Assembly (NCBI RefSeq): GCF_964355755.1
Contig: NC_092670.1
Span: forward strand, 41,205,388-41,269,387
Source: Antedon mediterranea
Lineage: Eukaryota; Animalia; Echinodermata
DNA length: 64,000 bases
Reading direction: 5' to 3'
Shown: positions 407-57,625 of the stretch, piece after piece
How positions within the stretch are numbered: the first letter of the stretch is position 1
Layout: each line of letters starts with the position of its first letter
Notes under the pieces: generated by a model
The model's database searches: none
The model's input: only the letters and a program-made list of their open reading frames with translations
What the model was told of the DNA's origin: nothing
Position numbers and translations under genes: made by a program

Positions 407-871
407 CACTACACTAGCCTAGCAGTCACAGCTGAAACCCTCGTCCCTGGTGGCCTGGGCCGACGTGTACTGAGTCCTGGCTTACTTAGTCTTGTTTAAA
501 ACTCTCACTCATCAACCAAAACACCAACCAGATCAGTGCTAAAAACAAAAAAGCTCACTACTACTAGCTTTCCACTTCTGTTCTACACTAACTTACTTCT
601 ATATATGGAGTAAATTCAAACAAAATCGGATGATATCACCGTATATATTTAAAAAATGTTTTTTTCTTATTAAACACCACTGCCACACACACACAACAAG
701 CATGTTTTTTATACGACGATCCATCCGCCGCCACCAATTTATTCAAGCGTGACAATCACTGGAATCATCGAAGCGTGAAAGATTATATCCAGCATGCAGG
801 TTAACAACCACAGTACACAAGTTGGAAAAACCACCACCACGAGCGAGTCGAGTAGAACGCGAGGAAAAAGG

Positions 872-3800
872 ATGGCTAGGTCAACTGCTGAAGAAATTGA
901 TGATGTTGCAGGCCTTTTTGCAGAATTTTGTGTCGTAACTGGAGCTTCGGAAGGTGAAGCACTTGAATATCTACAAAAAACAAATTGGCAAGTCGTGGTA
1001 AGTATAAAGCCAGCTAAAATCGGATAAAAACATCACTCACTCAAATCTCCATTATGAATTTGCATTAAATTAGTGATCGTATTGGTCGGCACACCTGTGG
1101 GGTGTCATGACATTTTAATAATACACACACGTCATAAGTAGATTTTTGTTATTGGAGGAGGACTGTGCATGGGTCACATGATATTATAAATGACAACTTC
1201 TATTGCACTTTTAATGATGTCATCGAGAGTGCAATGTTGTTCCATTGCTCTCAGTCTCATATAACCATTCATATGTATACTATCGGGTATACTAATGCGT
1301 CTGATTTATTTCTACTCAAAAAATACAAAAAAAGATGGCCGGCACACAAGATTTCTGAGACATAATCTGTTCAGAATATGCTAATTTTAAATACTAATGT
1401 TATTCTATGTTTTGTTATTGAGGATGCAATCAACCTATACTTTGATACAGTGGCAAACCAACCAGATGATGATGAGAATGGAACAAGCTCAAATTCAAAA
1501 GACAGGTATTTAATTCAGCTTTTAAAACAAGATTTTGGATCAAACAACAAAATAAATTTTGAAAAAGATACTGGCATGTGCATGTCTTTTATTTTTACAG
1601 TCTCAAAGTTGAAGGCAGTAAAGAAAAAGAAGACAAAAAGATAAAAATGATAACATGGAATATTGATGGTCTTGATGACCGGAATTTAATAGACAGAACA
1701 AAAGCAGTTTGTAGTATAATAGAGAGGTATATCAAGTGACTCATTTTAACATACAGGTGACCCTTGTACTCCTAACCAATCACAATCAACTAAATGCAGT
1801 TTGTAGTATTATAGAGAGTGATGACTCATTTCTATTAACATACAGGTGACTCTGGTACTCTCAACCAATCACAATCAACTAAATGCAGTTTGTAGTATTA
1901 TAGAGAGTGACTCATTTCTATTAACATACAGGTGACTCTGGTACTCTCAACCAACCACAACAATGTAGTTTAAACCATTCAGGATCTTCTTTCTTGAACA
2001 GTATGATAGAATCGGACTGGGTTCATGTTGAACATCTATCTCTAGTTTGTTTTATCATAAAGCTTGTTTTTTGTTTACCTATAAATTGTATATCTTTACT
2101 AATTATTGTATATCTTTACTAATTATTGTATTTATTTCATAAGACTTGAACCAGATATCATCTTTCTCCAAGAGGTCATAGTTGAAACAGCATCTCACAT
2201 CGAAAAACGATGCCAAAAATACAAAGTGCTACCAACAAGTGATGCTGCATACTTCACTGCTATGATGTTGAAAAAAAGTAGCGTTTCAATTCTTTCAAGT
2301 ATTGTTGATCCATTTGAGAATACAACGATGATGAGGGCGCTTCACAAAGTCAAGGTTTATCATTTTATTTTTTACTAATTTTAACATTAATGCTACTTTA
2401 CAAATATTTGATAACACAGTAGGTCTACAGTTCAACGTTTAGCTACACCAACAAAGTATTTCTGACAAATGTACAGTATTATTATATGTTGGGTACAATT
2501 GTTTTTGCTAGGTGAAATGTGCCGGAATAGAGTTCCTTCTGTTGAATTCTCATCTTGAAAGCACAAAAGATGCAAGTGGTAAACGCAAAAGACAGTTTCA
2601 GATGGCACTTCAAGAAATGTGCAATTCTAACGATGGTACTGTTGCCTTGTTTGGAGGGGACACCAACCTACGAGACAGTGAGGTAAGTGAACACCAACCT
2701 ACGTGACAGTGAGGTAAGTGAACACCAACCTACGAGACAGTGAGGTAAGTGAACACCAACCTACAGGACAGTGAGGTAAGTGAACACCAACCTACGTGAC
2801 AGTGAGGTAAGTGAACACCAACCTACGAGACAGTGAGGTAAGTGAACACCAACCTACAGGACAGTGAGGTAAGTGAACACCAACCTACGTGACAGTGAGG
2901 TAAGTGAACACCAACCTAAGAGACAGTGAGGTAAGTGAACACCAACCTACAGGACAGTGAGGTAAGTGAACACCAACCTACGTGACAGTGAGGTAAGTGA
3001 ACACCAACCTACGCGACAGTGAGGTAAGTGAACACCAACCTACGCGACAGTGAGGTAAGTGAACACCAACCTACAGGACAGTGAGGTAAGTGAACACCAA
3101 CCTACGTGACAGTGAGGTAAGTGAACACCAACCTACGTGACAGTGAGGTAAGTGAACACCAACCTACGCGACAGTGAGGTTAGTGAACACCAACCTACAG
3201 GACAGTGAGGTAAGTGAACACCAACCTACAGGACAGTGAGGTAAGTGAACACCAACCTACGTGACAGTGAGGTAAGTGAACACCAACCTACAGGACAGTG
3301 AGGTAAGTGAACACCAACCTATGAGACAGTGAGGTAAGTGAACACCAACCTACAGGACAGTGAGGTAAGTGAACACCAACCTACGAGACAGTGAGGTATT
3401 AGTGAACACCAACCTACAGGACAGTGAGGTAAGTGAACACCAACCTACAGGACAGTGAGGTAAGTGAACACCAACCTACAGGACAGTGAGGTAAGTGAAC
3501 ACCAACCTACGTGACAGTGAGGTAAGTGAACACCAACCTACGTGACAGTGAGGTAAGTCATAATGAACACAGTCCTCTGACAAACATACAGTGTACACAA
3601 GATGCTCAACATAAACAAATCTTGGGATTAGTAGCTGACCAACCTTCCACTCCACGTACTTGGTGCATAAAACAGGCAACAAGTCAGTGTATTTAGAAAG
3701 ATATTTGGAAAGACTATTAAAATAATAAATTTCATCATTTTAAAAATAGTTTATTAATTTAACAATGATTTTAGGTGAAAAGTATTGGAGGGTTACCTGG

Positions 3801-4059
3801 AGGAATTGTTGATCTATGGGAAATGTTTGGAAGTCCAGAAGAATCAAGATACACATGGGATGTCAAAAGAAACAATAACCTAGATTGGCAATTTGCAAGC
3901 AAACCAAGAATAAGATTTGATAGATTGTTCCTGAAACAAGCAAAGCAGCAACAAGTTCATCTGCAAACTTTTAAACTCATTGGAGACCAATGGATTTCAA
4001 CAGTTGAGCGATTTCCAAGTGATCATTTTGGCATTTACTGCGAGTTTAAAGTAAATTAA
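872..4059 (+). CDS. TDP2: Tyrosyl-DNA phosphodiesterase 2 (UBA-like + EEP domain), 6 exons
   Basis: Exons about 872-997, 1423-1505, 1601-1726, 2144-2354, 2512-2682 and 3775-4059, all GT-AG. Motifs ITWNIDGL, IFLQEV, SHLES, GGDTNLRD, RFDR and FPSDH. An in-frame upstream ATG at 794 is also possible. Confidence 0.93.
1704..1960 (+). repeat. ~90-bp x3 degenerate tandem repeat spanning the TDP2 exon 3 donor
   Basis: gcagtttgtagtat.atagagag recurs at about 1704, 1796 and 1885, followed by the same intronic sequence. Confidence 0.8.
2661..3558 (+). repeat. 31-bp x29 minisatellite containing the TDP2 exon 5 end and its 5' splice site
   Basis: Unit caccaacctac(gag/gtg/agg/gcg)acagtgag|gtaagtgaa; the first copy encodes TNLRDSE. 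Confidence 0.97.
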
Positions 4060-4836
4060 TTTGAACCAGTGCTAAACTTGACTTTGATTTTGTAAATTAG
4101 AGTGAACCAGGTGTAATAAGACGTGATTTCCGTTTCTTTTATTACCTCTTTATTGTTTGTGATTATTATATCAAACCAGTTACTTACAAAAAAAAACCAT
4201 ATTTGTCATAAAACTAAAACAAATATAAATAAATATAAATTCAAATATATTCTAAATAAATCTTGCACAAAATGTTTAATATTTGGTATTTTCAGGGAAG
4301 GAAACTGTTGGGCGACATGTTTATGAAAATGAAATGATTATGCTATAAAAATGCTTGTTAAAATCAGGTAACCTGGATTATTTAAATCGGGTAACCTGGA
4401 TTATTTAACAAATTGTACATGTTGTATTATTACTACTAATTGATTTCCACTAGCTTTTTATTTGCAAAAATTATATTATAAAGTTTAGTATCAGATTATA
4501 AGCACATGCTAAACCAAAGACAAGCTTGTACTCAACCACCTTGTATGTAACATTTATACTTGCAATCATTATTGTTATATGGTTATAAGTCATTTTTGAT
4601 ATTTAAGCCCTTAGTCAGGCTTCTCATATAAGTTGGTTTTTCTATAAAAGGGGCAAATATTGTCAAGAGCAAGTCTACTGTAATTAAGAAAGAGGGGTTT
4701 TCGTTCTAATCCACTGGCTACAGGCTTGCTATCAAAACAATAAAATAATATTCTTCTGCCAAACATTTGGACACCTTCTTCTTTTAATTCCTTCTGAGTT
4801 TGCATTTCTTATTTTTCTTATATTACAGTTAAGTAT

Positions 4837-5277
4837 GTACACATTCCGTTTAGTAGAGCACTAAATGAACTTAATGTTACGCATAATACATGCGACTATT
4901 TTGTTTTACGTCTATTTCAACAGTGTTGTTCATTTTCTTTTAATGTACGTACACATTCCGTTTAGTAGAGCACTAAATGAACCTAATGTTACGCATAATA
5001 CATGCAACTATTTTGTTTTACGTCTATTTCAACAGTGTTGTTCATTTTCTTTTAATGTACGTACACATTCCGTTTAGTAGAGCACTAAATGAACCTAATG
5101 TTACGCATAATACATGCGACTATTTTGTTTTACGTCTATTTCAACAGTGTTATTCATTTTCTTTTAATGTACGTACACATTCCGTTTAGTAGAGCACTAA
5201 ATGAACCTAATGTTACGCATAATACATGCGACTATTTTGTTTTACATCTATTTCAACAGTGTTGTTCATTTTCTTTA
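4837..5277 (-). repeat. 112-bp x~4 repeat containing the Argonaute C-terminal codons, stop and 3' UTR
   Basis: Each unit reads ...KQNSRMYYA* (or a one-base variant) on the minus strand; stops at about 5213, 5101, 4989 and 4877. Confidence 0.93.
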
Positions 5278-16095: not shown

Positions 16096-19000
16096 TTATA
16101 GGCTGCTTTTAGCCTGGCCAACACTTGATGCAGATTTCTTTCCAAGTGCTTTACATATAAAGTCTGCTGAACTTATCAATTTTCCAAGATCAACGCCCTG
16201 TAAATAAATCATAAATGTCTTTGGTTTAAAGAGCTTATAGTACTTGGCACCATCAAGTCAATAATGATTTGATTTCTAAAAGTATACAGTATTTTACTTA
16301 AGTCACAAATATGAAAATAGTGTATTGAAATAGAATCTTACTGTTTGAATCCCCAAACCATCTAACATATATACAACATCTTCTGTAGCAACATTACCAG
16401 AAGCACCTTTAGCATATGGGCAGCCACCAAGGCCAGCAATTGATGAGTCTACAACACTTATTCCCAGCTAGAAGTATAACAGACATTTTATTAATTAATC
16501 TATTGGTATCTACTAGTAATACGTTAATACCCCCCCCCCCCCCCGTCCCACAAGGACGTAGATCATAATAGCTATTAAGGTTGCAGTAATGTTTATTTTA
16601 CTGATACTGGCCTAGATACGTACACTCTCAATGGATGGAGAACAAACAGCAATCAACATGCTTTTATTGAAGTTTAAAAATGATGATGTAATCATGGTAT
16701 TGTTGACTGCTGCTGGTTAATTTTCCGCTGCAGTCTGTCAATTTACATAAGGCTCTTCCAACCCTGGACTTCTATAACGTAAATGGTTATTAGGTATTAC
16801 TGTATGATGAAATAGGATCTTTTAATTTAGTGGCATAAAAAACATTTAGTATGTAATTAAGGGTGTTGCTCAGGCAACTGGGGCAACACCCTTGCATCCG
16901 CCCCTGGCATACATAGGAATTGAAGGAACAAGAAACAAGGGTATGTAAAATGTCCTACTGTAATCAGTAAATAAATCACCTGTAAAGCAGCAAAGATATT
17001 GACTAAAGCTTGACCATAAGTGTTATGAAAATGAACAGCAAGTTGTTCAATTGGTACATCATTTATGACATCTTGTAGCATCTGTTGCACAGCTAGAGGA
17101 GTTCCAACTCCAATCGTGTCACCAAGAGAGATCTCATAGCAACCCATTTCACGCATTCTCTTTGCTACCTAAAAATACAGTTACATTTATTGTTTCTTTT
17201 CAGGTTGTCTTTTATTATTTCTTTTCACTATGCTATATGCAAGACAAGTGCATACACATTTTACATAAAAAATAAAATGTAAACCGCTATTTTGTTGTTG
17301 AATAGACCATAATCAGTTTGGGAGTGTTGGTGTACCTCATTATCAGAAATGTGCTTATTCCCACAATTTTGCCCTAAACATGCACCAGTGCTTTGAATAA
17401 TTTATTACGGGTTCAATGGAAGATTGGCTGACGATCACATACAAAAATTCAAAGTATTTCTTTTTTTAAATGCAAATCAATACTTGGAAACAAGTTTACC
17501 CTAGTTACTGCACTTGGTTCTATTTTGCCTTCGTATGGACAGCCTACTACGCAAGATACATAACCTCACAAGTTTACCCTAGTTACTGCACTTGGTTCTA
17601 TCTTGCCTATGTATGGACAGCCTACTACGCAAGATACATAACCTCACAAGTTTACCCTAGTTACTGCACTTGGTTCTATCTTGCCTATGTATGGACAGCC
17701 TACTACGCAAGATACATAACCTCACAAATTTACCCTAGTTACTGCACTTGGTTCTATCTTGCCTATGTATGGACAGCCTACTACGCAAGATACATAACCT
17801 CACAAGTTTACCCTAGTTACTGCACTTGGTTCTATCTTGCCTTTGTATGGACAGCCTACTACACAAGATACATAACCTTACAAGTTTACCCTAGTTACTG
17901 CACTTGGTTCTATCTTGCCTATGTATGGACAGCCTACTACGCAAGATACATAACCTCACAAGTTTACCCTAGTTACTGCACTTGGTTCTATCTTGCCTTT
18001 GTATGGACAGCCTACTACACAAGATACATAACCTCACAAGTTTACCCTAGTTACTGCACTTGGTTCTATCTTGCCTTCGTATGGACAGCCTACTACGCAA
18101 GATACATAACCTCACAAGTTTACCCTAGTTACTGCACTTGGTTCTATCTTGCCTTTGTATGGACAGCCTACTACGCAAGATACATAACCTCACAAGTTTA
18201 CCCTAGTTACTGCACTTGGTTCTATCTTGCCTATGTATGGACAGCCTACTACACAAGATACATAACCTCACAAGTTTACCCTAGTTACTGCACTTGGTTC
18301 TATCTTGCCTTCGTATGGACAGCCTACTACGCAAGATACATAACCTCACAAGTTTACCCTAGTTACTGCACTTGGTTCTATCTTGCCTTTGTATGGACAG
18401 CCTACTACACAAGATACATAACCTCACAAGTTTACCCTAGTTACTGCACTTGGTTCTATCTTGCCTTCGTATGGACAGCCTACTACGCAAGATACATAAC
18501 CTCACAAGTTTACCCTAGTTACTGCACTTGGTTCTATCTTGCCTTTGTATGGACAGCCTACTACACAAGATACATAACCTCACAAGTTTACCCTAGTTAC
18601 TGCACTTGGTTCTATCTTGCCTTCGTATGGACAGCCTACTACGCAAGATACATAACCTCACAAGTTTACCCTAGTTACTGCACTTGGTTCTGTCTTGCCT
18701 TCGTATGGACAGCCTACTACACAAGATACATAACCTCACAAGTTTACCCTAGTTACTGCACTTGGTTCTATCTTGCCTATGTATGGACAGCCTACTACAC
18801 AAGATACATAACCTCACAAGTTTACCCTAGTTACTGCACTTGGTTCTATCTTGCCTTCGTATGGACAGCCTACTACGCAAGATACATAACCTCTTACTGG
18901 AATATTTGCTTGTTTTGCAGATTTCATAACTTCCTCAAACCTCATCAAACTTTCGTCAATTGAACAATTTATATTTTTTCTAAAGTCAAAAATAAAAACA

Positions 19001-21661: not shown

Positions 21662-24600
21662 ATGGGGAAAAAACAAAAATTAACTGACAAGGTAATTTTT
21701 TCACGTAGTACATTAGTGCCAATTAATAAATTATTATTTATGTCTAGCTAGGCTAGTTAGCTTCTCTCTCTATTTAGGCTAGGTTAGGCCTAGCCTACTA
21801 GCTAGCTAGCCCGGCTAGCTAGCTAGAATACAGATCACTCCGGCCGCGCTTCACTCCGGCCGCGCTTCACTCCGGCCGCGCTTCACTCCGGCCGCGCTTC
21901 ACTCCGGCCGCGCTTCACTCCGGCCGCGCTTCACTCCGGCCGCGCTTCACTCCGGCCGCGCTTCACTCCGGCCGCGCTTCACTCCGGCCGCGCTTCACTC
22001 CGGCCGCGCTTCACTCCGGCCGCGCTTCACTCCGGCCGCGCTTCACTCCGGCCGCGCTTCACTCCGGCCGCGCTTCACTCCGGCCGCGCTTCACTCCGGC
22101 CGCGCTTCAATCCGGCCGCGCTTCAATCCGGCCGCAGCTATGGAGCGCCCAATGAGTCTTTTACAACTGAGACACGTTTTTTTGTAGAGAATCAAAATAT
22201 ACATTTGTAATCATACAGTATATTTTTTCTCTTTCAGGATCATAACAACATCGCAAGTGTTTTAAATTAGGTCTAATGCTAAAACAAAATAATTTATGTG
22301 TTTTATCCAATGTAATAGGCTAGGCCTAGTATATTAATTGTAATGTGATTAATTAATGTAATTTATTGCAATGTACCCTATATGTCATATTATTTTTATC
22401 ATATATAAATTAAAATATAAAATCATTGTAAATTGGACTGTACAAAAATGATATATTAATTCTTGATACAATTCCAGGTAACATTAATTAGACGGATATT
22501 TGATTATTTGAAATAAATAAATTAATATTGTAAATATTGTTATTAACTATAACAAACATCAATAATAATTGATTATTTGAAATAAATAAATTAATATTTT
22601 ACATTGTTATTAACTATAATTAGTAAGTATGGGTACTGGCAAGATAAAGTGTTATAAAAATAAGGGTTTTAACTAATTTTTAATGTTAATAAATGTAAAG
22701 CTATAAAAATAAATGTACATAGAAAGAAATTAAATATTGTTATTCAAGCATTAATTAGACAGGTATTTGATTATTATTTTATTATTGAATTTAATTAAGT
22801 TAAGTTTAGTTTGAAAGAAAAAGCAGTTCCAACTTCTTTGAATGTTATTCTTAATGAAAAAAAGTAAAATTGTTGCTAATAAATATTCAACTAGTTCCAT
22901 TTAAATTCACCAAGAATTTGTTATAACACTGAACAGTATAGAAAACGTAGATATGGGCGCTCCATACTAACCGGCCCCTTTGCACAGGAAGTCGAATTGA
23001 ATAGCGGCCGGAGTGCATAACATCGCGCTAAACTGATACGGCGGCCGGAGTGAAGCGCGGCCGGAGTGATCAGCTACCGCTAGCTAGGCCTACTAGCCTA
23101 GCTGTAGTTACGCCGATTCAGGGATGATTCGGCCCCAAGACGACATATTCTGTCTGAAAATAAAGTTTGGGGAAAAAAGCTTATTTTATGCTTAATGCAT
23201 ATCAAAGTCGATAAATGTAAGTGTGCCGAATCGTCTCGGGGCCGAATCGAGTCTGGGTTCCAGACGGAGTTTTGTCTTAATATTAGTAAAAAGATAAATA
23301 TTTTGGCACATATGGCGTTTCATACGTATACTACTTGATTTTGGATACTCCGTCTGGGGAAACACGCACAAGTCACGTGGTTTAACACCAAGAATTCTTG
23401 GTGCATACGATTATCCGGTTGACTAGTTTCAGCTGCATGCGATTGGATACTCACTCGTACACCGTTTTAATATTCATATTTCAGAATTTCAAAGACTCAA
23501 CAACTAAGATGATGCGCATGCGCTATGTTACGTTTAGACAATGTGTACATTTATGAAAGTTATTATTTTATATGCCTAGTAGTCTGCTAAACATTTGATG
23601 GGATTTTTCCCAAGAACATGCTCGTCTTGATGTGATAGGCTATAGCTTCTCGGCAATTCAAACATTGAATGGATCATTTATTACGCGGAGATAATTTTGA
23701 TTTAATTCCCACCCAGACCCGGTCCTGTTTTGTGTGGTGGTGGTGTAGCCCTGTTGTGTGCCGGTGGTATGTAGGCCTCGACCTTTATTGGCGTTTTATT
23801 TGGCAGGTCATACGTGCGAGTTGAGTAGGACCTACGAAAGAGGCCTAGGCCAAGGACTAAACAATTCATAAACAACAACAAAAAAACAACTTGGCATTAC
23901 GATTTTATATTTCAACAGTCTCGATTGTACATTCAGCACTGTACGTATTCGATCATCAAAATAATTATTGGTTGATTCGAAATCCATATTTACATACCGG
24001 CCGCCCCATATAGCCAAATACGGTATGATAACCTACGTCATTCTTATCGGATGTTTGCGGTCCGCAAATCGATTTCTATACGTGTTTCACAAGTCTGTAT
24101 TTTCAGACAAAAATCGCGGTCGAAATAAAAACAAATAAATAAAAAAAAAGACAATAAATACAGACTTGGGGCAAGTCTAGGCCGAATCGTCCCGCTACCG
24201 TTACGCCTGGCCCTGCTAGCTAGCCTAACTGGTAGCTACTATGATTCGGCCCAGCGAGAGGCTTTCGGCCCACTTAGGAGGTCGGCCTTTAATATAAATG
24301 TGATTCTTAATTTCTTATTGATTTTTTACAATTTAGGTAGCTGACTTCCTACCTGATTCATTTCCGTCAATGGAAGATGAACTCGATACTCGTAAAATGG
24401 TTAAAATTCAAAACAAAAAGAAAAAGTCAGGCGGCTTTCAATCAATGGGTGAGTCTATTTAAAAAGTTTACAAAAAAATGTTATTAATTAAATGATTCTT
24501 GAGATTGTGATTTTAATTAATAAAATGTTGTATCATTTATAGGTTTAAATCATGCAGTTTTTAAAGGTATAATACGTAAGGGATACAAAATTCCTACACC

Positions 24601-27600
24601 CATTCAACGCAAGGTAAAAGGCTATTGCATTTTTTAAAAAAGTTTTTAATGAAATTTAACATATCCAATCCAATCTAATTTGTCTGCGATCATTTACAGT
24701 TTGTTAAATTATTTTAAATTGTGAAATATGTCTACCTGTTTTCTAGAGTATCCCAGAAATAATGGAAGGCAAAGATGTGGTTGCCATGGCAAGAACAGGT
24801 AGTGGAAAGACTGCTGCGTTTCTTATTCCAATGTTGGAGAAGCTGCAACAAAGGTCAGGGCAATCTGGTGCAAGAACCTTAATTCTGTCACCTACAAGAG
24901 AACTGGCTCTACAGACACTTAAGTTTGCCAAAGAGGTAAGTAGAATGAGTAGAACCTTAATTCTGTCACCTACAAGAGAACTGGCTCTACAGACACTTAA
25001 GTTTGCCAAAGAGGTAAGTAGAATGAGTAGAACCTTAATTCTGTCACCTACAAGAGAACTGGCTCTACAGACACTTAAGTTTGCCAAAGAGGTAAGTAGA
25101 ATGAGTAGAACCTTAATTCTGTCACCTACAAGAGAACTGGCTCTACAGACACTTAAGTTTGCCAAAGAGGTAAGTAGAATGAGTAGAACCTTAATTCTGT
25201 CACCTACAAGAGAACTGGCTCTACAGACACTTAAGTTTGCCAAAGAGGTAAGTAGAATGAGTTAAGAACAAAATCTTTATAAATAAAAACTTACAGATAT
25301 ACTGAAGTAAAAATATAATAGTGATAATCTAATAGCTTTTTCTGTAACTTTATATTATCAAGAGTTCAAACAATAAATAAAAGTATTACTCTAATTGTTC
25401 CATTTTTTTTTTATTAACATTTTATATTTGTTGTATTTTCAGTTAGGTCGTTTCACAGATCTGCGTGCAGAGGTAATTCTAGGGGGCGACAGCATGGAAG
25501 AACAATTTGCTGCCTTACATGAGAATCCTGATATAATTATTGCAACACCTGGTCGTTTATTACATATCATTATGGAGATGGATCTAAAATTGAAAGCAGT
25601 TCAGTATGTTGTCTTCGATGAGGCTGACAGGTGAATATTTAGATTTTATTGTAGTTCAGTGTGTTGTCTTTGATTAGGCTGACAGGTGAATATTTAGATT
25701 TTATTGTAGTTCAGTATGTTGTCTTTGATGAGGCTGACAGGTGAATATTTAGATTTTATTGTAGTTTAGTATGTTGTCTTTGATTAGGCTGACAGGTGAA
25801 TATTTAGATTTTATTGTAGTTCAGTATGTTGTCTTTGATGAGGCTGACAGGTGAATATTTAGATTTTATTGTAGTTCAGTATGTTGTCTTTGATTAGGCT
25901 GACAGGTGAATATTTAGATTTTATTGTAGTTCAGTATGTTGTCTTCGATGAGGCTGACAGGTGAATATTTAGATTTTATTGTAGTTCAGTATGTTGTCTT
26001 TGATGAGGCTGACAGGTGAATATTTAGATTTTATTGTAGTTCAGTATGTTGTCTTAGATGAGGCTGACAGGTGAATATTTAGATTTTATTGTAGTTCAGT
26101 ATGTTGTCTTTGATTAGGCTGACAGGTGAATATTTAGGTTTTATTGTAGTTCAGTATGTTGTCTTTGATGAGGCTGACATGTGAATATTTAGATTTTATT
26201 GTAGTTCAGTATGTTGTCTTAGATGAGGCTGACAGGTGAATATTTAGATTTTATTGTAGTTCAGTATGTTGTCTTTGATGAGGCTGAAAGGTGAATATTT
26301 AGATTTTATTGTAGTTCAGTATGTTGTCTTTGATGAGGCTGACAGGTGAATATTTAGATTTTATTGTAGTTCCGTATGTTGTCTTTGATTAGGCTGACAG
26401 GTGAATATTTAGATTTTATTGTAGTTCAGTATGTTGTCTTCGATGAGGCTGACAGGTGAATATTTAGATTTTATTGTAGTTCAGTATGTTGTCTTAGATG
26501 AGGCTGACAGGTGAATATTTAGATTTTATTGTAGTTCAGTATGTTGTCTTTGATTAGGCTGACAGGTGAATATTTAGATTTTATTGTAGTTCAGTATGTT
26601 GTCTTTGATGAGGCTGACAGGTGAATATTTAGATTTTATTGTAGTTCAGTATGTTGTCTTTGATGAGGCTGACAGGTGAATATTTAGATTTTATTGTAGT
26701 TCAGTATGTTGTCTTTGATTAGGCTGACAGGTGAATATTTAGATTTTATTGTAGTTCAGTATGTTGTCTTTGATTAGGCTGACAGGTGAATATTTAGATT
26801 TTATTGTAGTTCAGTATTTGATTTGATTTATTTTGATACCATACAAAGTTAACAAATACAGATATACAGGTAAATATTCATGATTGTATTCAGTACATTG
26901 TCTTTGGTGAGAAAAATATTCATTTTGCTGTTGAATTATTGTAGTGTGTACCGTGTTGTGGAGAAGCATTTCCTAGGGAACTCAATTGACAACATACAAG
27001 TCCATGCGCTGTCTTTTTGAAGTTCTGGTTTGTTAAAGCATAAAGAAATGGGTTTATTGCTGCATTGGTCCAAACCAAAACATTAGCACTTCTTATAAAA
27101 ACCATTGATGTTTGGTTGTCCTTATTTGTAAAAACAGCAATACCGTAAGGAATCCAGCAGAAACATGTAATGCTAACAATAGCAATAACAGCTTTCATGA
27201 CTCTAAATTCTGGATTGCGTGGCGCTTGTGATATGGTTCTAGGTAATGTTCTACCATTCCGCATTGTTAGTGAATGTGTATGTACACGTCGTCTGCTCTC
27301 ATGATAAGCTTTATATATCAAGTAATTTGTAATAGTAACAAGACAAAGTGAATAACCCATTGCATATCCTATTATGATTGCTTCAAACGTCCATGATTCC
27401 AAATCTCCATAAACTATTGCGCAATGTCGTAATGCAACGTTAAATCCCACCTCACCAAAACCACACATTGGCGCTAACACCGGCCCAAGAGTCAACAGAA
27501 AGTTTATACAAATCGTAAACACAATATATTTGTATTGTGTAAAGCGGATGTAAAATCTATGAGATTTAGTTATCAGTATATAACGATTAATACTAATAGT

Positions 27601-30600
27601 TGTCAGGGTAGTTAAAGACATGCCTAGAGTCCAAAGTGTAACATATCCCAGAAACTTACACAAATTACAATCAAGGTTCCAACTGTTGTTGTACACACTA
27701 TAAATAAAGAATGGCATAAGAAAGCCTGTAGTGATCAGATCAAAGACTGCTAGATTGGCAACCCAAAAGTAAGTTACAGTCCGTAATGCTGGCGTGAATA
27801 TAATGGCTGATATCACAAATATGTTACCCACACTTCCTACAATACATAAAGTAATGAGGTAGATAACTTCAATGACTGTTCCAAAAGGCCCGCTGGATTC
27901 TGTCAGAATGTCTGTCACATTCACTATTATGGGATAGCAGTAATTTGCCATGATTTGGAAATATTCAATTCAATCTTTTGATTTTTACTAAACAATCCAC
28001 TGAGACCTAAACAGAGATTAAAACAAAAAAAGTAGTGATAATAATAAAGAAATTTAGGAATTCTATGACTATAGAACATGTCAATTACTTGATAAATGAA
28101 ATGAGAATGTAGCTATTAGTATTATGGATCATGAAATGAGAATGTAGCTATTAGTATTATGGATCATGAAATGAGAATGTAGCTATTAGTATTATGGATC
28201 ATAAAATGAGAATGTAGCTATTATGGATCATGAAATGAGAATGTAGCTATTATGGATCATGAAATGAGAATGTAGCTATTAGTATTATGGATCATGAAAT
28301 GAGAATGTAGCTATTAGTATTATGGATCATGAAATGAGAATGTAGCTATTAGTATTATGGATCATGAAATGAGAATGTAGCTATTAGTATTATGGATCAT
28401 GAAATGAGAATGTAGCTATTAGTATTATGGATCATGAAATGAGAATGTAGCTATTAGTATTATGGATCATGAAATGAGAATGTAGCTATTAGTATTATGG
28501 ATCATGAAAATGTTTGGATAACAACAGAAAATGAATGAAAACAGTGGTATATTCATCATGATGCCAACATCTGGTGAGCTATCGATATAGAGTGAATATA
28601 AATATTGAGCTATGCTTCCTGGTCCCCATGGTATACCTTAAATTAATTAAATAAAACATTTACACAAATAAAATCATACTTACCGCCGACATCATACTTA
28701 CCGCCGACACTGGGAGTTGGGAACAACTAACAAGACCATTTCAACTTGACCAGATTCAGATTTCTAATAAGATTTTTAATTCTTGCTTGGAGTATGAAAT
28801 TTAATTCTTTTAAGGCTCTGTTTACCTTAATCTTGAGTTGTATGACGAAACATGTTTGATTAAATGCCATATCATAGATATAATTATCAAAGTAGATTGC
28901 ACTAATAACTTATATCAAGTTGAAACACTTAATTATATCATGGAGGGATGATTATATTGTGAAGCTAATGGGCTTGTTTACCGTAACTGTCCATTAGTCT
29001 TGTGTAAAGTAAAGTGAATATTAATGTGTTTACCCTTAATATATTTACACCAGTATCTGCATATAGATAGACGAGGTATCAAATACCATACACAAGATCA
29101 TATCACATTTAGAATATTCCATTGGCATCTGTACGATATTATTCTGTTTTTATCTGATTTGGCAGTTAATACTTAGTTATACACTGTTTACCTCAGTATC
29201 AAATAAAAAATTTGTTTTTTTTTGTGTTTTGTGTGCATGCTACGTGTGTTGCTTTAACAACATTTTAAAGTTAAGTCGTGATGTAGTCATTGTAGGGCCA
29301 TTCAAAATGACTTGTTGACTTTTAGACCCTTGGTACCTCCCTGCTTGATGTTTAATCAAAATATTAATAAATGAATTTGTCTACTTTGACAGATTGTAAA
29401 TTACGGTCGCTCATTTCTCATTTGTTTATATTAGGTTATTTGAGCTTGGATTTGCTGAGCAATTAAGAGAGATAATTCAGAGATTACCTGACAACAGACA
29501 AACAGTCTTATTTTCTGCAACACTTCCAAAGTCATTGGTAGAATTTGCTCAGGCAGGTCTTAATGATCCTCTACTTATACGTCTTGATGTCGAAACTAAA
29601 ATCAGTGAAAATCTCAAGGTATATCAGATTTGATTTTTTTAATTATGGCGAAACAAATAAAATGTTGATAAACAAGCTGTTCAACAGAGTTAGATGTTTG
29701 GCAGAATATCGGTAAAATTCAAAATGCATACAACATAAATACCATAAATATTTGTATAATAATTGCTGATATAATAATTAGACATCAATTTGAGTCAAAA
29801 CCATTTAACGTTATTTCACCCATTGATTTTATAGACATCATTTCTTTGTATGAGGGCAGCAGATAAATTACCAGTGTTGATGTACCTGTTGAGAGAAGTT
29901 GTGAAAGCCAATGAACTTGCTGTTGTTTTTATGGCAACTAAACATCATGTAGAATTTGTTAAAGAGGTGAGATTGATGTTTGCATTCATTTCAAATTTGT
30001 AGTGTTTTACATTCACATGTTTGTGTACATGTAGATGATATCAAATTGAACATTTTTAGCAGTCTTTATTTGGCCAAGTCCAGTAATAAAAAAGGAACTG
30101 TTTTCCACAAACAGTATTTTAAAGAAATTGAGTCTTGAAATACAAAATAAAAAATGCTCTTCCAATTCTACAGTAATTAAAAACTAAACCTAAAATATAT
30201 TTTCTATCAAGATTCTAACGCAAGCTGGTGTAAGCTGTACTTACATCTTCAGCTCTCTTGACCAGACTGCACGTAAAATTAACGTGGCAAAATTTACAAA
30301 TAGAAAAACAAATGTGATGTTAGTGACAGATGTAGCTGCTCGTGGTATTGACATCCCAATGTTGGATTATGTCATAAATTTTAACTTCCCAGCAAAACCA
30401 AAGTTATTCATACACAGAGTTGGTAAGTTGTAACTTCTTCATTTGTATTGTAGTAGTGTGGCAAAAGCAGCTTGTAGTTTCTCATAAAGTTTTTTTAAAA
30501 TTGAGCTTTTTTAATTGTTTTTCAGGTCGTGTAGTTTTAAAAATTGAGTTAATTTGTTTTTCAGGTCGTGTAGTTTTAAAAATTGAGTTAATTTGTTTTT

Positions 30601-33600
30601 CAGGTCGTGTAGCAAGAGCTGGTCGTAGTGGTACAGCTTTCTCAATGGTAGCACCTGATGAATTGGCACATTTAGCTGACCTTCATCTGTTCCTTGGCCG
30701 ACCTTTGACATTCTGCCAAAGTTTACACACTAAAGGTGATGATCATATTAGTATCCACTGAATTCAATTTTAATGATTAAATTGAGTATGTAATGTCATA
30801 ATGTAAATATTATCAAGTAAATTTTGGTTTAAAATGATAACAAAATCACAAAAATAGGAGAACCCATTTGAAATAATATTTTGCAAAAGAATTAACACAA
30901 GTTCAAATTTACTACTAAGATGATGATGGCTTGTTTGGACGTGTGCCTCAAAGTATAGTGGAGGATGAAGCAGATCACATACAGCAGTTAGAAAACAGAT
31001 CAATGGAGATTGAAGGATTGAAAAAAGTTTGTCGCAATGCTTACTCACAATATCTTAAATCACGACCGGCGCCCTCTACGGCTAGTATTAAACGTATGAA
31101 AGAGTTTGATGGCGTTAATGTCATGTTGCATCCAATGTTTGGTAAGTTAATAATTTATAGAAGAATAATAACTATTAGATCAAAGTGAAACATAAAAACA
31201 AAATGTAAGTAATCTTAATATCCACAGAAAAGCATTTTTGAATTCATTATAATGAAATTTATTTTTAAATAGATGTAAATGATAAAGATGAAACTACAAG
31301 ATACCAACTTGTGGATGGAATCAAGAATTATAAAGCAAAAACGGTAAAATAAATAACTTGTTACACCCTTTCTCCACCAACTATATAATAAACTGTATAC
31401 AAAGTAAGGGTTAATTGTCAATACTTCACAGACAATATTTGAAACCAACACTACAGCAAAGAGTTCAGCATTTGATGTTATGAAAACAAAGAGAAGAATT
31501 CATCAAAACGCAGTTAGTAAAAGAAGGAATAGATTGGAAGAAAAGGAATCAATAGAAAGTGGAAAAAGTAGAAAAAGAAAAGCAAATGATGATGATGGTG
31601 TAAAAATGGCAATGGTAATTTTATTGATGTATTACTTATTGATTATAGAATGTTTTAATATGTGTATGTTTATATATGTTTATTGATCTATTACTTATTG
31701 ATTATAGAATGTTTTAATATGTGTATGTTTATATATGTTTATTGATCTATTACTTATTGATTATAGAATGTTTTAATATGTGTATGTTTATATATGTTTA
31801 TTGATCTATTACTTATTGATTATAGAATGTTTTAATATGTGTATGTTTATATATGTTTATTGATCTATTACTTATTGATTATAGAATGTTTTAATATGTG
31901 TATGTTTATATATGTTTCATATATGTATGCTTTAATGCTTCTTATAATCATATAAACCTAATAAGGAGTTGTTCTTATTTTTAAGGATACATTCTCAGTA
32001 GTAATAGACGGCAAAAGAGGACGTAAATCAGCCAAATTTGATGAGGGTAGTGATTACTATATTTCCTATACACCATCAGACAAACAAACAGAGCAAGGGT
32101 ACATATGCTTCTATTTTATCAAAGGGTATATTTATCATATTCATGTTACTTTTATCTGCATGTTATTTTTGTGTGTGTGTTTTATTTGACAGGCTAAGTG
32201 TTGGTTCATCGTTTAGTCATCAAGCTAAGTCTGCTGTACTTGACTTAACTCAGGATGACAGTCGGATAATGAATAAAAATCAGAAGCTTATTCGCTGGTA
32301 AGACAATTAATCTGTTATGTAGTGATATGCCCAAATATGGTAGTGATATGACATCATCATGTCCATATATGGGCACATCACATTTTTATACAGTTTCTTC
32401 AGTAATCAATTAACGTTTAAAATATAATAAACATTTGTTTAAATATTTCACTTTCTTTTTTTAGGGACAGAAAAAAGAAGAAATACATAAACGAAGCTGG
32501 AAAAGATACACTAAAGAAAATAAAAACAGAAAGTGGGATGTACATCTCGGCATCTTACAAAACAAACAGGTATATTCAACCAATGTTTATCAAATCAAGA
32601 TCACTAATTAAAAGCAGGTTGTTAATTAAATAATATATTTTAACTTTATTTGTTGTTTAGGTACAAAGATTGGCAAGAAAAGAGCAAGGTTGGTATGAGG
32701 GCAGCAGATGAAAGTGATGATGAAGATACAGCAAAAAGAAATGGTAAAGCCCTGCTTCTATATTGATTGCACACTGATTACTGTAGTACCTATTATGTAG
32801 AGCATTTAAAGAAATACTGTGTTTATATTGATTGCACACTGATTACTGTAGTACCTATTATGTAGAGCATTTAAAGAAATACTGTGTTTATATTGATTGC
32901 ACACTGATTACTGTAGTACCTATTATGTAGAGCATTTAAAGAAATACTGTGTTTATATTGATTGCACACTGATTACTGTAGTACCTATTATGTAGAGCAT
33001 TTAAAGAAATACTGTGTTTATATTGATTGCACACTGATTACTGTAGTACCTATTATGTAGAGCATTTAAAGAAATACTGTGTTTATATTTATTGCACACT
33101 GATTACTGTAGTACCTATTATGTAGAGCATTTAAAGAAATACTGTGTTTATATTGATTGCACACTGATTACTGTAGTACCTAGTATGTAGAGCATTTAAA
33201 GAAATACTGTGTTTATATTTATTGCACACTGATTACTGTAGTACCTATTATGTAGAGCATTTAAAGAAATACTGTGTTTTTTTAAAGGCAAACTTGGATT
33301 AAAATCAACGTTAGGAAATCGTTACCGTGGTCATCATAAACAACAAAAAGGAAAAGCACGAAATGAATTAATACCAAATGAGAAAATCTTAAAGACACGT
33401 AAGAAAAAAGAAAAGAATCAAGAAAGAAGTAAACCTAGGAAAGACCGGGGAAGAGATGGCAGGGGTGGAAGAGATGGCAGGGGTGGAAGAGATGGCAGGG
33501 GTGGAAGTGCTGGTAAAGGAGGCAATGTCTTTGGCAGAAAGGGAGTCAGCAATTTTGGTGGAGGCCGAGGAGGTGGAAGAGGCGGCCGAGTTGGTGGTGG

Positions 33601-43158: not shown

Positions 43159-44196
43159 TCATGGCATGTGCATGCCAATCTAATTGGGTAAGAAGTCTCT
43201 TTGCTCCAGACTCCATATGGTCATTCAGAGGTTTGCCTTCTTCATCCAGACTCTTGTTAGTTTGAGGTAATCCAAAAATATTTGACACACTGATGCATCC
43301 AATTTCACCCAATAAAGCACGGAGCTGTATGGCTGCCCTCATTCCTCCATACTGTCCTAAAAAAGAGAATTTTAGAGCTTAATAAAATGCAGTCTCTATG
43401 ATAATGATAACTATTGCAACAGCTTAATAATAAATGATATACTCACCTGGAGAGTAGCAAACGATTCCTGAAGGTTTATATGAAAAGCTGCTGCCTGGGA
43501 AGTGGTCCAAGAGATTAGCAAGTGCTGGTGGAATGCTATGATTGTACTCTCCAGTAATGACAACATAACCGTCGGCTTCCTTTATTCTGTTTCCCAGATC
43601 AACCAATAACGGAGGAGCTTCAGATGGATTCTTATAAAAGTGAAGAGGTTTCTTGAGTAGTGGCAAATTTAGTTCTTGGGCATCTAAAATAACATAAATT
43701 ACATTTAGTTAATTGCTTTGAGCAGAATGTGGAAATTATCATTCAATTATAATAAATTTGTTCTTACAAAAACAACACGTTAATCTTTAATTTATTAGAA
43801 AACCCATTAACTTGATTTAAAACCAGGATACATAGCTCAGGTCAAGGCGATCGCGTAGCCTTTTGGCAAAATAATTAGTACTGTCGATCGGTGTCAATCA
43901 CAATAAATTTGATATTGTTCATAAACTGTAAATCACCACGATGAAGGCGCGGCTGCTAATACCACAAAGCAATCAAAGACGGACGATCAATCACAGCTGT
44001 GTTACTTATGGCCTACACGCGATCTCGATACCCTGGTATTGTGGCTAGCTTACTTACCCCGTTACTTACCCATAAAATCTACGTCGTGGCCTGCTTTTAG
44101 CAAGAAGTTTTGCATAAATTTTGCAACACGTAATCCAAGTCTGTTTTCTCGTACAGTTCCAAGGAAAAGTACGTATTTCAATGGTTTGCTAGCCAT
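43121..44196 (-). CDS. NAD(P)H-dependent FMN/quinone reductase (FMN_red flavodoxin fold), 3 exons
   Basis: Exons about 44196-44070, 43683-43447 and 43356-43121. Motifs LGTVRENRLG, ADGYVVITGEYNHSIPPALANLLD, YKPSGIVCYSPGQYGGMRAA. Confidence 0.9.
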
Positions 44197-47578: not shown

Positions 47579-49348
47579 GGATGCTAGTCAAGTCGCCCCA
47601 TCGCAAAGTCGCCCCATACAAAGTCGCCCCTTACACAGTCGCCCCATCGCAAAGTCGCCCCAAAACAAAGTCGCCCCGACACAGTCGCCCCATCGCAAAG
47701 TCGCCCCATCGCAAAGTCGCCCCAACGCAACGTCGCCCCATCGCAAAGTCGCCCCATCACAAAGTCGCCCTATCGCAAAGTCGCCCCAAAACGTTAAAAA
47801 ATAGTTTACAAGTGCGTAAAATGTCGCAATGATACACAAAATAACACGGAACGTGTAGGCATAAAAAGGGGAAGCCCCGCCATGTAGTTTCAGGTCACAC
47901 GATCGGCACGCACCACCATCATCAGAGAGGAAGCCCCCGACTAATCACTCCGCGGTCGCACTAACGTGCTAGCTTACCAGAGGGAAACCCCCGTAATTAC
48001 TCCGCCGTTGTCGCACTACAACGCACCATCTGAAGATGGGGAAACCCCGCCGGAGTTTTACGATGATATCAGTCGCGTTCGAAATCGGTCGCGTTTAAAT
48101 TTGGTCGCGATAAAATGATGTTATACGATCTAGATTATATACATAGTATTACGTAATGAACATTGATTGTAAGCCTGGAAAGGCAATCCCATCATTATAT
48201 CCATTATAAAATTGCATCATATCACCACTATATGTCGTAAATGATGACGTGCGTGTGTGTATTCGTCGTACGTCCGTGTACGTATTATTCCGTGCCTCTT
48301 CACGGTCTTGTTTAATTTAAAATTAAATAAATACCCGATATGAGGATATTTATTAGGCATGATAATTAGAATGTTCTAGGCCTAACCAAAAGGGTTGAAA
48401 AGAATTTCTTCAGTAAAATGATCATTGTGCTGTTGAATAAAAGGCGACTCGCCATCTGAAACATTCTCTGAAACCAATCGGAACTGCGCCGTCTTTCTGC
48501 TGACCGTCGGGGATTGCTCTTTTTAAAAAACACGCACACGATACTGTACGATGGTTTTTCCATGGTCAAAATGTAGCGTTTTAATTTTACTAAAATACCT
48601 GCATGTAAAACAATCATATCGGCGATGAAATCCTTTTTTTTTAATTTCTTTATTTTGAAAAGTCATTATAAAATTAAGACACATAACTTGTCAATAAATG
48701 CAAAATGATCAATAAGTAGCCTATAACACTCATTGTCTTACAACACTGTTATTGTTTTAACTACTGTAAATCTATAGGAAGGCCTAGGCTACTACACATT
48801 TATACATTTATTATAATTATTATCCTAAAAAATTAGCTGGTATCCACGCGTAGGTTGAAGAAAGATTCGTAATTGTGGCTCTGGTAACTAATTTTAAAAT
48901 CATATTAAATTAACATTTTCGAAACTATAAATCAGGGATAGGCCTAATCTTTTTAGAACTTTCAAACAAGGGACTATTTTTTTAATGATTTTTAATAAAA
49001 AGCACATCACTCCATTAAAACCTTAAAAATTAAAACACAAATTATGTATATAGGATAAACATTATACTGTATACGACATTTAGCGCGACCAAAGTAACAA
49101 CGCAATCGATATCAAACGCAACCAATATGATTAAAACCGTGGGCGACTTTGCGATGGGGCGACTTTGCGTTGGGGCGACTTTGCGATGGGGCGAATTTCC
49201 GATGGGGCGACTTTGTAATGGGGCGACTTTGCGATGGGGCGACTGTGCCGGGGCGACTTTGTTTTGGGGCGACTTTGCGATGGGGCGACTTTGTATTGGG
49301 CGACTTTGTATGGGGCGACTTTGCGATGGGGCGACTTGACTGGATCCC
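47579..49348. mobile_element. Non-autonomous DNA transposon with ~200-bp inverted subterminal (aaagtcgccccatcgc)n arrays and an 8-bp TSD
   Basis: TSD ctctttcc at 47571-47578 and 49349-49356; arrays at about 47586-47790 and 49141-49341. Confidence 0.92.
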
Positions 49349-52291: not shown

Positions 52292-55200
52292 ATGGAAACT
52301 ATGTCATGCACTGGACATACAGTCGGTAAGTATTGCATTGCATGAAATGTTAACATAATAATAAGAACAAACTTTCCTTGGAAGTAGTTTATACACTTTA
52401 AAAATTATAGATGAGTTAGGGTACAGTAGGCCTACTATGCGTTTTTCCAAAAAAATCCATGGAACATTGTCTAAATCTTTATCACTATACAAATATTTGA
52501 TTGCAGTTTGAACTACATACACACTACATAAAAACTTCATCACTTGACATAATGTCATCTTAAGTATACATGAGAAATGCAATATTTACGTGAACTTTGG
52601 TTGAACTTTAGTCTATTAATGTCTAATATGAAATCCAGACACACTGTTATCAGGTGTATTATGCAATTCATTTTAAGTCTAGACTTAACAATAAAATTGA
52701 GGAAGGAACATTTTGAGTTGTCACTAGATTTTGAAATTTAAGTTTTGATTAATAAATCTTATGTATTCAGTCTTCCATATCATGTAGGTTCCTCAACAAG
52801 GAAAGTCAAATAAATATGGTTTGAACTTGTAAAGCTGTATTATCCCTTAATTATGGTAGCATATTGTAAAAACATATAATGCGACCTACCGCTGATAGTT
52901 TAAAAGATCAGCTTGATCATGCAGAAAGAAGGTCATATTTTGGCTTTAAAACTTGCTGAAGGGTGATGTTGTCTTCAAAATGTTCTTCCTGTTTGTAAAT
53001 TAAACATAGTCTTGGGTGGTGTTTAACCTATGATGTTGGATTGATTTTAATCTGTAAGTTATTGTCAAATTGGTAGTTAAATACACCTGTACTTACTTCT
53101 TTAAGTTAGATTGTTTGTTGCTACTGTCTTCTTTAAGATTTAATTGTCTCTTGCTATAATTTATACTTTTTACTTTCTATAGCTATATAATTTCTTATTT
53201 AAGTTACATTGGCTGTTGCTATAATTTATTCTTTAGGCTAGATGTCCTTTACATATTAATGTTATCTTAAAATCATAACGTGTATACATTACCCTGCATT
53301 GTCCTTTAATAAATGAATCTATATTTATGTTTAACTCTTAATTACATTGTTAATTATCTTATGAGAGAAGCATAAGAAGCATTGAGAAAACCGAGAGGTT
53401 CTCGTGGTGGCAGAAATAAAAGTCGTAAGATTAAAGTCGTTATTGGTAATGGGCGTAGGCCTAGGCCTACCACCATGGCCGCCCTCAACAAAAGTGGCTC
53501 TTCTCGAAATAATCTGGTCACAATTAAACTACGTAGATCAAGAGTTTCTTGTCCGAGACTTTTCCTTGCTAATGCCCGCTCTGTTAAAAATAAGATTGAT
53601 GAATTTGAAGCCACCACTTCCAAATTCAAAGTCGATATAGCTGTGTTAACAGAGACTTGGCTGAATGATGCTACTATTGATTTTGTGAATTGTTCCGGTT
53701 TTAAAAAGTTCACGAAGAATAGATGCAACAAGAGAGGTGGTGGTGTTGCTATTTTTGTTGGTGATGATTTTGCCTGTGAATCTTGCATTGCACATGGTAG
53801 CTGTAATTTCGAATGCTTTTGGATAAAGACATCTATTCCAGGCAAGTCAAATCAAGGTAGTCACTTTTATATTGGAGCTATTTATTATCCTCCGTCTGCC
53901 GCTAATGCGGATTTGTTGATTGAGCACATTGTTGATACAATTGATAACATTCGTTCTATGGATTTCGCTGCTCCTATTGCTATTTTGGATGACTTTAATG
54001 ACCTAGATCTAGCTGAGCTGGAAGTGAATGTTGGACTGTCGCAAGTTGTTAACTTCGCTACACGAAAGGATGCCCTGTTGGACAAGATATTTTTGAGTCG
54101 TGCTGATCTTTACCATCTTCCGCAACGCTTAGCGCCACTGGGTCGGAGTGACCATAATGCCATCCTATTGGAACCACTGATTGAATTACCTCAGCACAAG
54201 CGTCTATCAGTGCGTTCTCAGCCATATCGTGACTCCTCTGTTTTGTCCTTTGGTCAATGGGTTACAACCCATGAGTGGAATGATGTGCTGAATATTGAGG
54301 ACGTCAATCGAAAAACCAAAATGTTCTCTTCAATTTTGAATGGTGCTTTTAACAAGATATTTCCTGTGCTGATTAGGAACAAGCGCACTGCTGACAAGCC
54401 CTGGATGTCCGACAAGATTCGAAGATTAATTGACTCTAGACAAAATTTGTTTCGTAGGTTTGGATGAGTGGCGTTCAATTCGCAACTTAGTCCAAGATTG
54501 TATTAGAAAGGCTAAAAACAAATATTATTGTAATTCCTTATTAAGTCTTAAACGTAACAACCCTGCCATGTGGCATAAAGGTATTAAACAACTATGTAAT
54601 CTTAAGACTAAAAATACTAATTTCACCTTGCCTGGGCTGTCCAAAGTTGAAACTGCCTCTGATGCCCATTTCTCTAGTGTTTGTAATGCCATCCCTCCTC
54701 TTAATTTAAACGATTTGCCTGCTTATCTCCCAGCCCCTGGGCCACCACCTTTAATATATGCTGGTCAGGTCCTAAAAGCCCTTTGTAATCTTAAGCCTAA
54801 CAAAGCTGGCCATCCAGATGAACCTCCTATTAAACTATATAGAGATTTTGCTCCTGAACTTGCTGAACCTGTTGCGGATATCTTCAATCATGCATTGAAG
54901 GATGGTGTTTTCCCCGACCTTTGGAAAAGGGCTACTGCAGTTCCCATTCCTAAAACTGTGAATGCTAGTTCTGTCTCTGACCTTAGACCTATTTCCCTTA
55001 CCTATGTTCTTGCCAGGGTATTTGAATCTTTTATTGTTAAGTGGATTCTTGAAGATATTAAGGGTAAATTAGATTCTCGTCAATTTGGTAGTAGGAAAAA
55101 GGCTTCCTCAACTCACTATCTTGTTAGTCTTATTGACTCTACACTCAAAGATGTTGAGAAGGGTAAATGTTATGTTAACCTATGTGCCACTGACTTTACT

Positions 55201-57580: not shown

Positions 57581-57625
<45 letters not shown>

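Follow-up and report, generated by a model that had tools for sequence, protein, structure and literature searches.

The exon 5/intron 5 junction of the TDP2 gene in the crinoid Antedon mediterranea is the first copy of a 29-copy minisatellite, whose units each join an exon end to an intron start and lie head to tail. The preferred reading, held at a probability of about 0.8, is that slippage between two ACAC words, separated by 31 nt, recently gave rise to this junction repeat, which is tolerated without function. Toleration is argued because copy 1 supplies the donor of the assembled mRNA and the remaining 28 exit with the intron. The analysis covered 64,000 nucleotides of the forward strand (assembly GCF_964355755.1, contig NC_092670.1, positions 41,205,388 to 41,269,387), here called the window. 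The features of the locus are as follows.

794..4059, + strand: TDP2, 359 aa, six coding exons (794-997, 1423-1505, 1601-1726, 2144-2354, 2512-2682, 3775-4059)
2660..3558, + strand: minisatellite of 29 units, each 31 bp long (23 nt of exon end and 8 nt of intron start), from TRF, motif search and DNA contigs at matching depth
2660..2682, + strand: exonic part of copy 1 (exon 5 end), which codes for part of the active-site motif G-D258-T-N-L-R262-D-S-E265 (motif aligned to solved TDP2)
2680..2688, + strand: authentic donor GAG/GTAAGT, cut after 2682, used in the RNA-like contigs of runs X5 and X9
2691..3558, + strand: 28 intronic copies, with 26 identical pseudo-donors and two weakened ones (cuts after 3178 and 3395)
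2704..2706, + strand: in-frame TGA met by every downstream-donor transcript
3559..3774, + strand: intron 5 tail, unique in sequence, holding ATTAAA (3716), AATAAA (3724) and the acceptor (3773-3774); a homologous tail is present in organism B, run X6
3775..4059, + strand: last exon, with the SDH motif (residues 347-349)

The array and its units

The repeat was detected by TRF at 2660-3558 (period 31, 28.9 copies, 94% matches), and a motif search gave 29 unit matches against 0.00 expected, a number reached in none of 100 shuffles. The two methods agree with the tandem array of 29 GAG/GTAAGT donors in TDP2 reported in a preliminary description. That account had also given a unit of 22 nt of exon and 9 nt of intron starting at 2661; the repeat is the same, and its longest register is shifted by one base, to 23 + 8 nt from 2660. 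The GT is kept in all 29 copies and the whole GAG/GTAAGT in 27, as had been stated to within about two copies. The exceptions are copy 17 (GAG/GTTAGT) and copy 24, a 33-nt unit with GAG/GTATTA. Scored with a matrix built from the same 75 donors of the window, the authentic TDP2 donor ranks first among them.

Variation between copies was thought to be focused on one triplet, and this holds, with the triplet corrected to unit positions 12-14; differences are also found at position 26, together with one 2-nt insertion. Read in the frame of TDP2, the triplet is the Arg262 codon. Its versions among the 29 copies are CAG (11), CGT (9), CGA (4, exon copy included), CGC (3), AGA (1) and TGA (1). The sole CpG of the unit lies at positions 12-13, and from the sequence it likely explains part of this hot spot. 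Eight distinct unit types follow one another in a non-periodic order. Copies 2-10 hint at a three-unit higher-order periodicity, and no lag from 1 to 7 beats the shuffles (best P = 0.24). The unit has no match elsewhere in the window and none in metagenome contigs, where animals are rare.

Is the number of copies real? DNA run X1 is from organism A and is probably the source sample. Its unique flank contig has a depth of 309, and three short array contigs, read as single-copy variants, have depths of 230-259. The contig that exactly matches the CGT copy has a depth of 2384, or about 9-10 copies, where nine are assembled; the summed array depth is 29,727 against 309 for the flank. The junction of the last copy is also present among the X1 contigs. 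These records are all contigs and none spans the array: five of the nine runs that cover the stretch were aligned, to the two flanks of the array. Tandem repeats are frequently mis-sized, and an assembler might have expanded a short repeat. Against such an artefact, whose probability is negligible, stand the eight unit types in their non-periodic order, the read-derived depths and the occurrence of array contigs in a second sample (X5). The array is real and the X1 contig depth fits the assembled copy number; absence from the reads, named at the outset as grounds for dismissing the array, is not what the read-derived X1 contigs show.

The host gene and the fate of downstream-donor transcripts

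The host gene is identified from its translated product as TDP2 (5'-tyrosyl-DNA phosphodiesterase). Splicing at donor 1 gives a product identical at 359 of 359 residues to the NCBI TDP2-like protein of A. mediterranea (P0001), which bears out both the name of the gene and the position of the unit astride the exon 5 donor. The spliced product shares 231 of 331 positions with the Anneissia japonica protein, is assigned UBA_4 and Exo_endo_phos by Pfam, and has 13 TDP2-type matches in PDB at E<=1e-20. An N-terminal UBA-like domain is followed by an EEP nuclease with the motifs WNIDGL, LQEV, SHLES, GDTN and SDH, and all introns are GT-AG.

What would be the product if a downstream donor were used? 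Each of the 28 leads into the same TGA at 2704 and yields 272 aa in place of 359, with residues 266-359 and the SDH motif lost, so that the earlier claim of a lost last exon is true for all of them. The distance past the stop is 7 nt for donor 2, 38 nt for donor 3 and 69 nt for donor 4. Nonsense-mediated decay acts on stops more than 50-55 nt upstream of a junction; by this rule, transcripts cut at donors 4-29 would be broken down and escape notice in steady-state RNA. Most of the GDTNLRD motif (residues 257-263) is encoded within the exonic bases of the unit. In the accessible text on human TDP2, D262, D350 and H351 are essential and D262 is catalytic (PMC5778467); their counterparts in the feather-star protein are putatively placed by motif.

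Which donor is used

No run is recorded as RNA; X5 and X9 were taken as such on the ground that intron 4 is missing from their contigs, with the break at GT..AG. In X5 (organism A, a different sample from X1), a 1684-nt contig of depth 119.7 skips intron 4 and leaves exon 5 at 2684 for exon 6; ahead of its exon 6 part stand the bases that precede copy 1 and are unique to that place. The X9 contig (organism B) likewise leaves exon 5 at 2684 for exon 6. X5 contigs cover neither intron 4 nor the greater part of the intron 5 tail, and no weight is put on this gap. The main mRNA is made with the first donor, as seen in one run per species and in contigs, which drop rare variants. Downstream-donor junctions are absent from the contigs at this resolution, which loses rare forms, and decay would hide those of donors 4-29.

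X5 also has at least five array contigs over 2674-2725, with depths of 18-78 that sum to 197.5 against 119.7 for the mRNA contig. These might be pre-mRNA, excised intron (lariat) or DNA; their variant mix, with identities deduced from mismatch counts, resembles the whole array and not copies 2-3, which suggests one of these sources. RNA structure that might hide the pseudo-donors was looked for in the array, with a z of -0.80 and 34 of 200 shuffles folding as well. The possibility that CAG copies act as acceptors of a 9-nt micro-exon was rejected, as their best score is -0.44 and the minimum among 75 real acceptors is 3.63.

An array-free relative and the origin of the unit

How did the unit originate? 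Organism B, whose exons differ from the window at 8/211, 1/175 and at least 5/285 bases (about 2%), has no array in an intron 5 of about 220 nt, and its spliced mRNA is the same. The five differences listed for exon 6 are all synonymous. In two DNA contigs of organism B, X8 of sample S4 (1523 nt) and X6 of sample S3 (1862 nt), the sequence crosses one unit and continues without a break, while the X1 flank contig ends at 2689. X8 aligns to 2694, through GTAAGTGAACAC, and then enters non-repeat sequence (2 of 19 differences have no assigned position); X8 and X9 both have zero depth at 2695-2725. Two samples of organism A thus have the array and two of organism B lack it, as judged from contigs, in which allele lengths are unreadable. 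Its absence from two samples of a close relative makes it likely that the array is young; the alternative to a gain in A would be a loss in B.

In organism B the exon ACAC (2660-2663) and an intron ACAC are exactly 31 nt apart, so that one slippage yields the unit and a 6-nt deletion becomes superfluous. The preliminary description had proposed ACAC microhomology together with such a deletion. The microhomology is borne out by both words in organism B. The deletion is disfavoured because it would have to happen twice, the intron of organism B already beginning with GTAAGTGAACAC like the 28 internal junctions; the CATAAT of the last copy would more simply be a later change. Birth of the unit by slippage at the ACAC repeats is therefore the likely course, as far as can be read from the two sequences, and the array-free close relative displays this probable birth step.

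The Arg262 codon is CGA in the window exon (2671-2673) and CGT in the organism B exon, and both versions occur within the array. Over 3530-3550, X9 has no differences from copy 29 (CGT), and none of the 19 differences in X6 falls before 3565. The pattern would be accounted for if array and exon had exchanged sequence, or if copy 1 had acquired a synonymous change that spread afterwards.

Known junction minisatellites

The array is a junction minisatellite of the 'mirage' or F7 IVS7 type, a kind of repeat already known. The unit of the human CBS repeat is 31 bp. In lancelets, mirages (Adh3, the globins BflGb6/BflGb9, troponin C, PGBD5) are tandem exon-intron boundaries that are reported to leave splicing undisturbed and to show length polymorphism and somatic instability (PMC3087553, PMC3902484). 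Shared with the TDP2 array are boundary copies with intact splice signals, no apparent disturbance of splicing and the occurrence of several arrays in a region, and the TDP2 unit length falls in the 10-72 bp reported for Adh3. The TDP2 array differs in belonging to a crinoid echinoderm, in having 29 copies against 3-6 in BflGb6, and in having an array-free relative that makes its origin traceable.

The 37-bp VNTR of human F7 IVS7 also has a first unit that spans the boundary and identical pseudo-donors, and only the most upstream donor is seen in use. Its copies number 5-9, each with 4 nt of exon, and its donor is weak (consensus value 74). TDP2 has 29 copies with 23 nt of exon each, and its near-consensus donor places it in the regime where F7 pseudo-sites began to compete. 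In F7 minigenes identical pseudo-sites are functional yet unused, and only perfect-consensus sites compete, with 70-90% use (PMC1557585). In silent arrays of the F7 type, the pseudo-site that is then most upstream would take over once the first donor is destroyed. Further human cases in that source are IFI6 (6-16) intron 2, CBS intron 13, LMNB2 and PDGF intron 4. The authentic site is used in F7 IVS7, LMNB2, PDGF and the lancelet mirages (PMC1557585, PMC3087553, PMC3902484), and in IFI6 and CBS two pseudo-sites are used beside it (PMC1557585). The latter two are donor arrays of a size like that of TDP2 (25 pseudo-sites in 6-16, 15-20 units in CBS); in contrast to them, no pseudo-site use appears for TDP2 in contigs, from which rare forms drop out.

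The accessible portions of PMC10078293 and bioRxiv 10.1101/310433 hold no junction-spanning case, and a literature search outside of which most subscription journals lay gave no such minisatellite in crinoids or echinoderms. The TDP2 array is probably the first to be noted in a crinoid.

Function or toleration

In the preferred reading, that of a recent and tolerated junction repeat, a single slippage or unequal exchange at ACAC would have made two copies, and the usual minisatellite turnover, rampant in this genome, would have enlarged the array, with the lone CpG of the unit (positions 12-13) probably behind much of the variation. The first donor would win through exon definition and 5'-to-3' order, by analogy with what was shown experimentally in human F7, and clearance by nonsense-mediated decay of products from donor 4 or later would lower the cost. 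With 28 near-consensus donors behind the real one, the locus is a natural test of the rule that the first donor wins, at high donor strength and outside mammals. What speaks against toleration is the very strong donor, the array contigs of X5 and the evidence of one RNA run per species.

Could the array set the dose of TDP2? A few per cent of transcripts might use downstream donors and be truncated or degraded, with copy number determining the loss. Some leak is plausible because the TDP2 donor ranks first of 75 and perfect-consensus F7 pseudo-sites competed. The 26 pseudo-donors are identical to this top-ranked donor, proximal pseudo-donors are used in IFI6 and CBS, and the X5 array contigs amount to about 7 per copy if 28 intronic copies are counted, or about 6% of the mRNA depth, a rough figure for which contig depth is a poor measure. 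However, the X5 mRNA contig is unbroken at the junction, and the deepest of the at least five X5 variants makes up 39% of the sum, close to the CAG share of 11/28, which fits whole-intron molecules better than use of donors 2-3; moreover, a leak is by itself not regulation. A dose-setting leak is on balance unlikely. An extended form, in which the array is a young, species-specific device that diverts a copy-number-dependent share of splicing and also swaps sequence with the exon as a mutational reservoir on the active site, is similarly improbable. If the reservoir were true, exchange could bring into the exon the missense or stop versions of the Arg262 codon (CAG or TGA) that 12 of the 28 intronic copies carry.

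The roughly 900 nt of donors were also suggested to act on U1 snRNP, as a sponge or by suppressing premature polyadenylation in intron 5. From the sequence of the U1 5' end, each intact copy could pair with U1 at -2 to +6. ATTAAA (3716) and AATAAA (3724) lie downstream of the array. U1 protects over a range of about 1 kb; donor 1 is 1042 nt from the AATAAA and the last copy 172 nt, and later copies could offset the distance that the array itself made. A sponge is difficult to reconcile with about 1 million U1 per mammalian cell, as given in the accessible text of PMC10870369, against 27 sites on a few nascent transcripts. Protection from polyadenylation fares little better, since organism B makes the same spliced mRNA from its short intron without an array, AATAAA occurs in 33 of the 75 window introns, and the array is not conserved. 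Both U1 roles, very improbable on these grounds, are set aside in favour of the tolerated repeat.

Arrays and junctions in the window

Are tandem arrays directed to splice junctions? The window was modelled as eight genes with 75 introns (median 182 nt), and the enrichment test rests on this one window. The TDP2 and argonaute models match NCBI proteins exactly; the other genes were modelled by hand with open frames, and with Pfam for most, and include those that we take to be DDX54, HMGCL, PHTF-like and TMEM60. The start of the first, non-coding exon of TMEM60 was guessed; a search for DEAD-box exons returned nothing at E<=1e-30, and the helicase model was made by hand. Forty non-redundant arrays cover 16% of the window. 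Those within genes, of period >=15 and matches >=85%, number 24, or 20 after four exonic ones are dropped. A junction lies inside six of the 20, a donor in five cases and an acceptor in one, where chance would give 4.22 (P = 0.23). The corresponding figures are 6 against 4.16 for all 24 (P = 0.22) and 4 of 11 against 2.33 for large arrays (P = 0.19). Arrays that span a junction or lie within 40 nt of an exon are 13 of 20 against 7.68 expected (P = 0.013), at a threshold picked after looking. There is no clear sign of a junction-targeted process in the window; dense minisatellites in short introns often hit junctions. This suggests that genes with short introns and dense minisatellites can come to have junction arrays by chance. 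Junction arrays in addition to that of TDP2 include the following.

25598-26817, + strand: 55 bp x 22, helicase donor; tested downstream donors truncate the protein
17490-18893, - strand: 78 bp x 18, donor of the HMGL-like gene; tested downstream donors truncate the protein
60954-61182, + strand: 114 bp x 2, donor of the PDZ/PH gene; tested downstream donors truncate the protein
30511-30612, + strand: 39 bp x 2.6, helicase acceptor, in which the last copy is the real one

In the DEAD-box helicase (DDX54-like), a perfect array of 78 bp x 5 (24873-25262, + strand) spans a donor. This array keeps the frame and is free of stops, and later donors would add 26 aa each (876, 902, 928 and 954 against 850); it is the best place in the window to look for real use of a downstream donor. 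Directly after the 55-bp donor array, an intronless 349-codon 7tm_1 receptor frame (26920-27969, - strand) lies antisense in helicase intron 5. At the first donor of the FMN-reductase gene (44050-44080, - strand) there is a two-copy echo of about 12 nt, under the TRF threshold. An 89-bp x 2.5 repeat in TDP2 intron 3 (1746-1960, + strand) has units in which the last ~21 nt of exon 3 recur in decayed form, with the donor missing. A 112-bp x 4 repeat (4829-5276, - strand) holds the last ~20 codons and the stop of argonaute, repeated into the 3' region.

Mobile elements are also found. Two reverse-transcriptase (LINE-like) elements lie in an intron at 53376-58001 (+ strand), the second with a tail of 42 A at 57581-57622 and apparently inserted in the first. 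The segments 47586-49341 and 21833-23071 have terminal inverted repeats of 16-bp tandem units, with arms of 201 nt (94% complementary) in the former and of 31 nt, one side grown to 19 units, in the latter; both are likely non-autonomous transposons of the foldback type.
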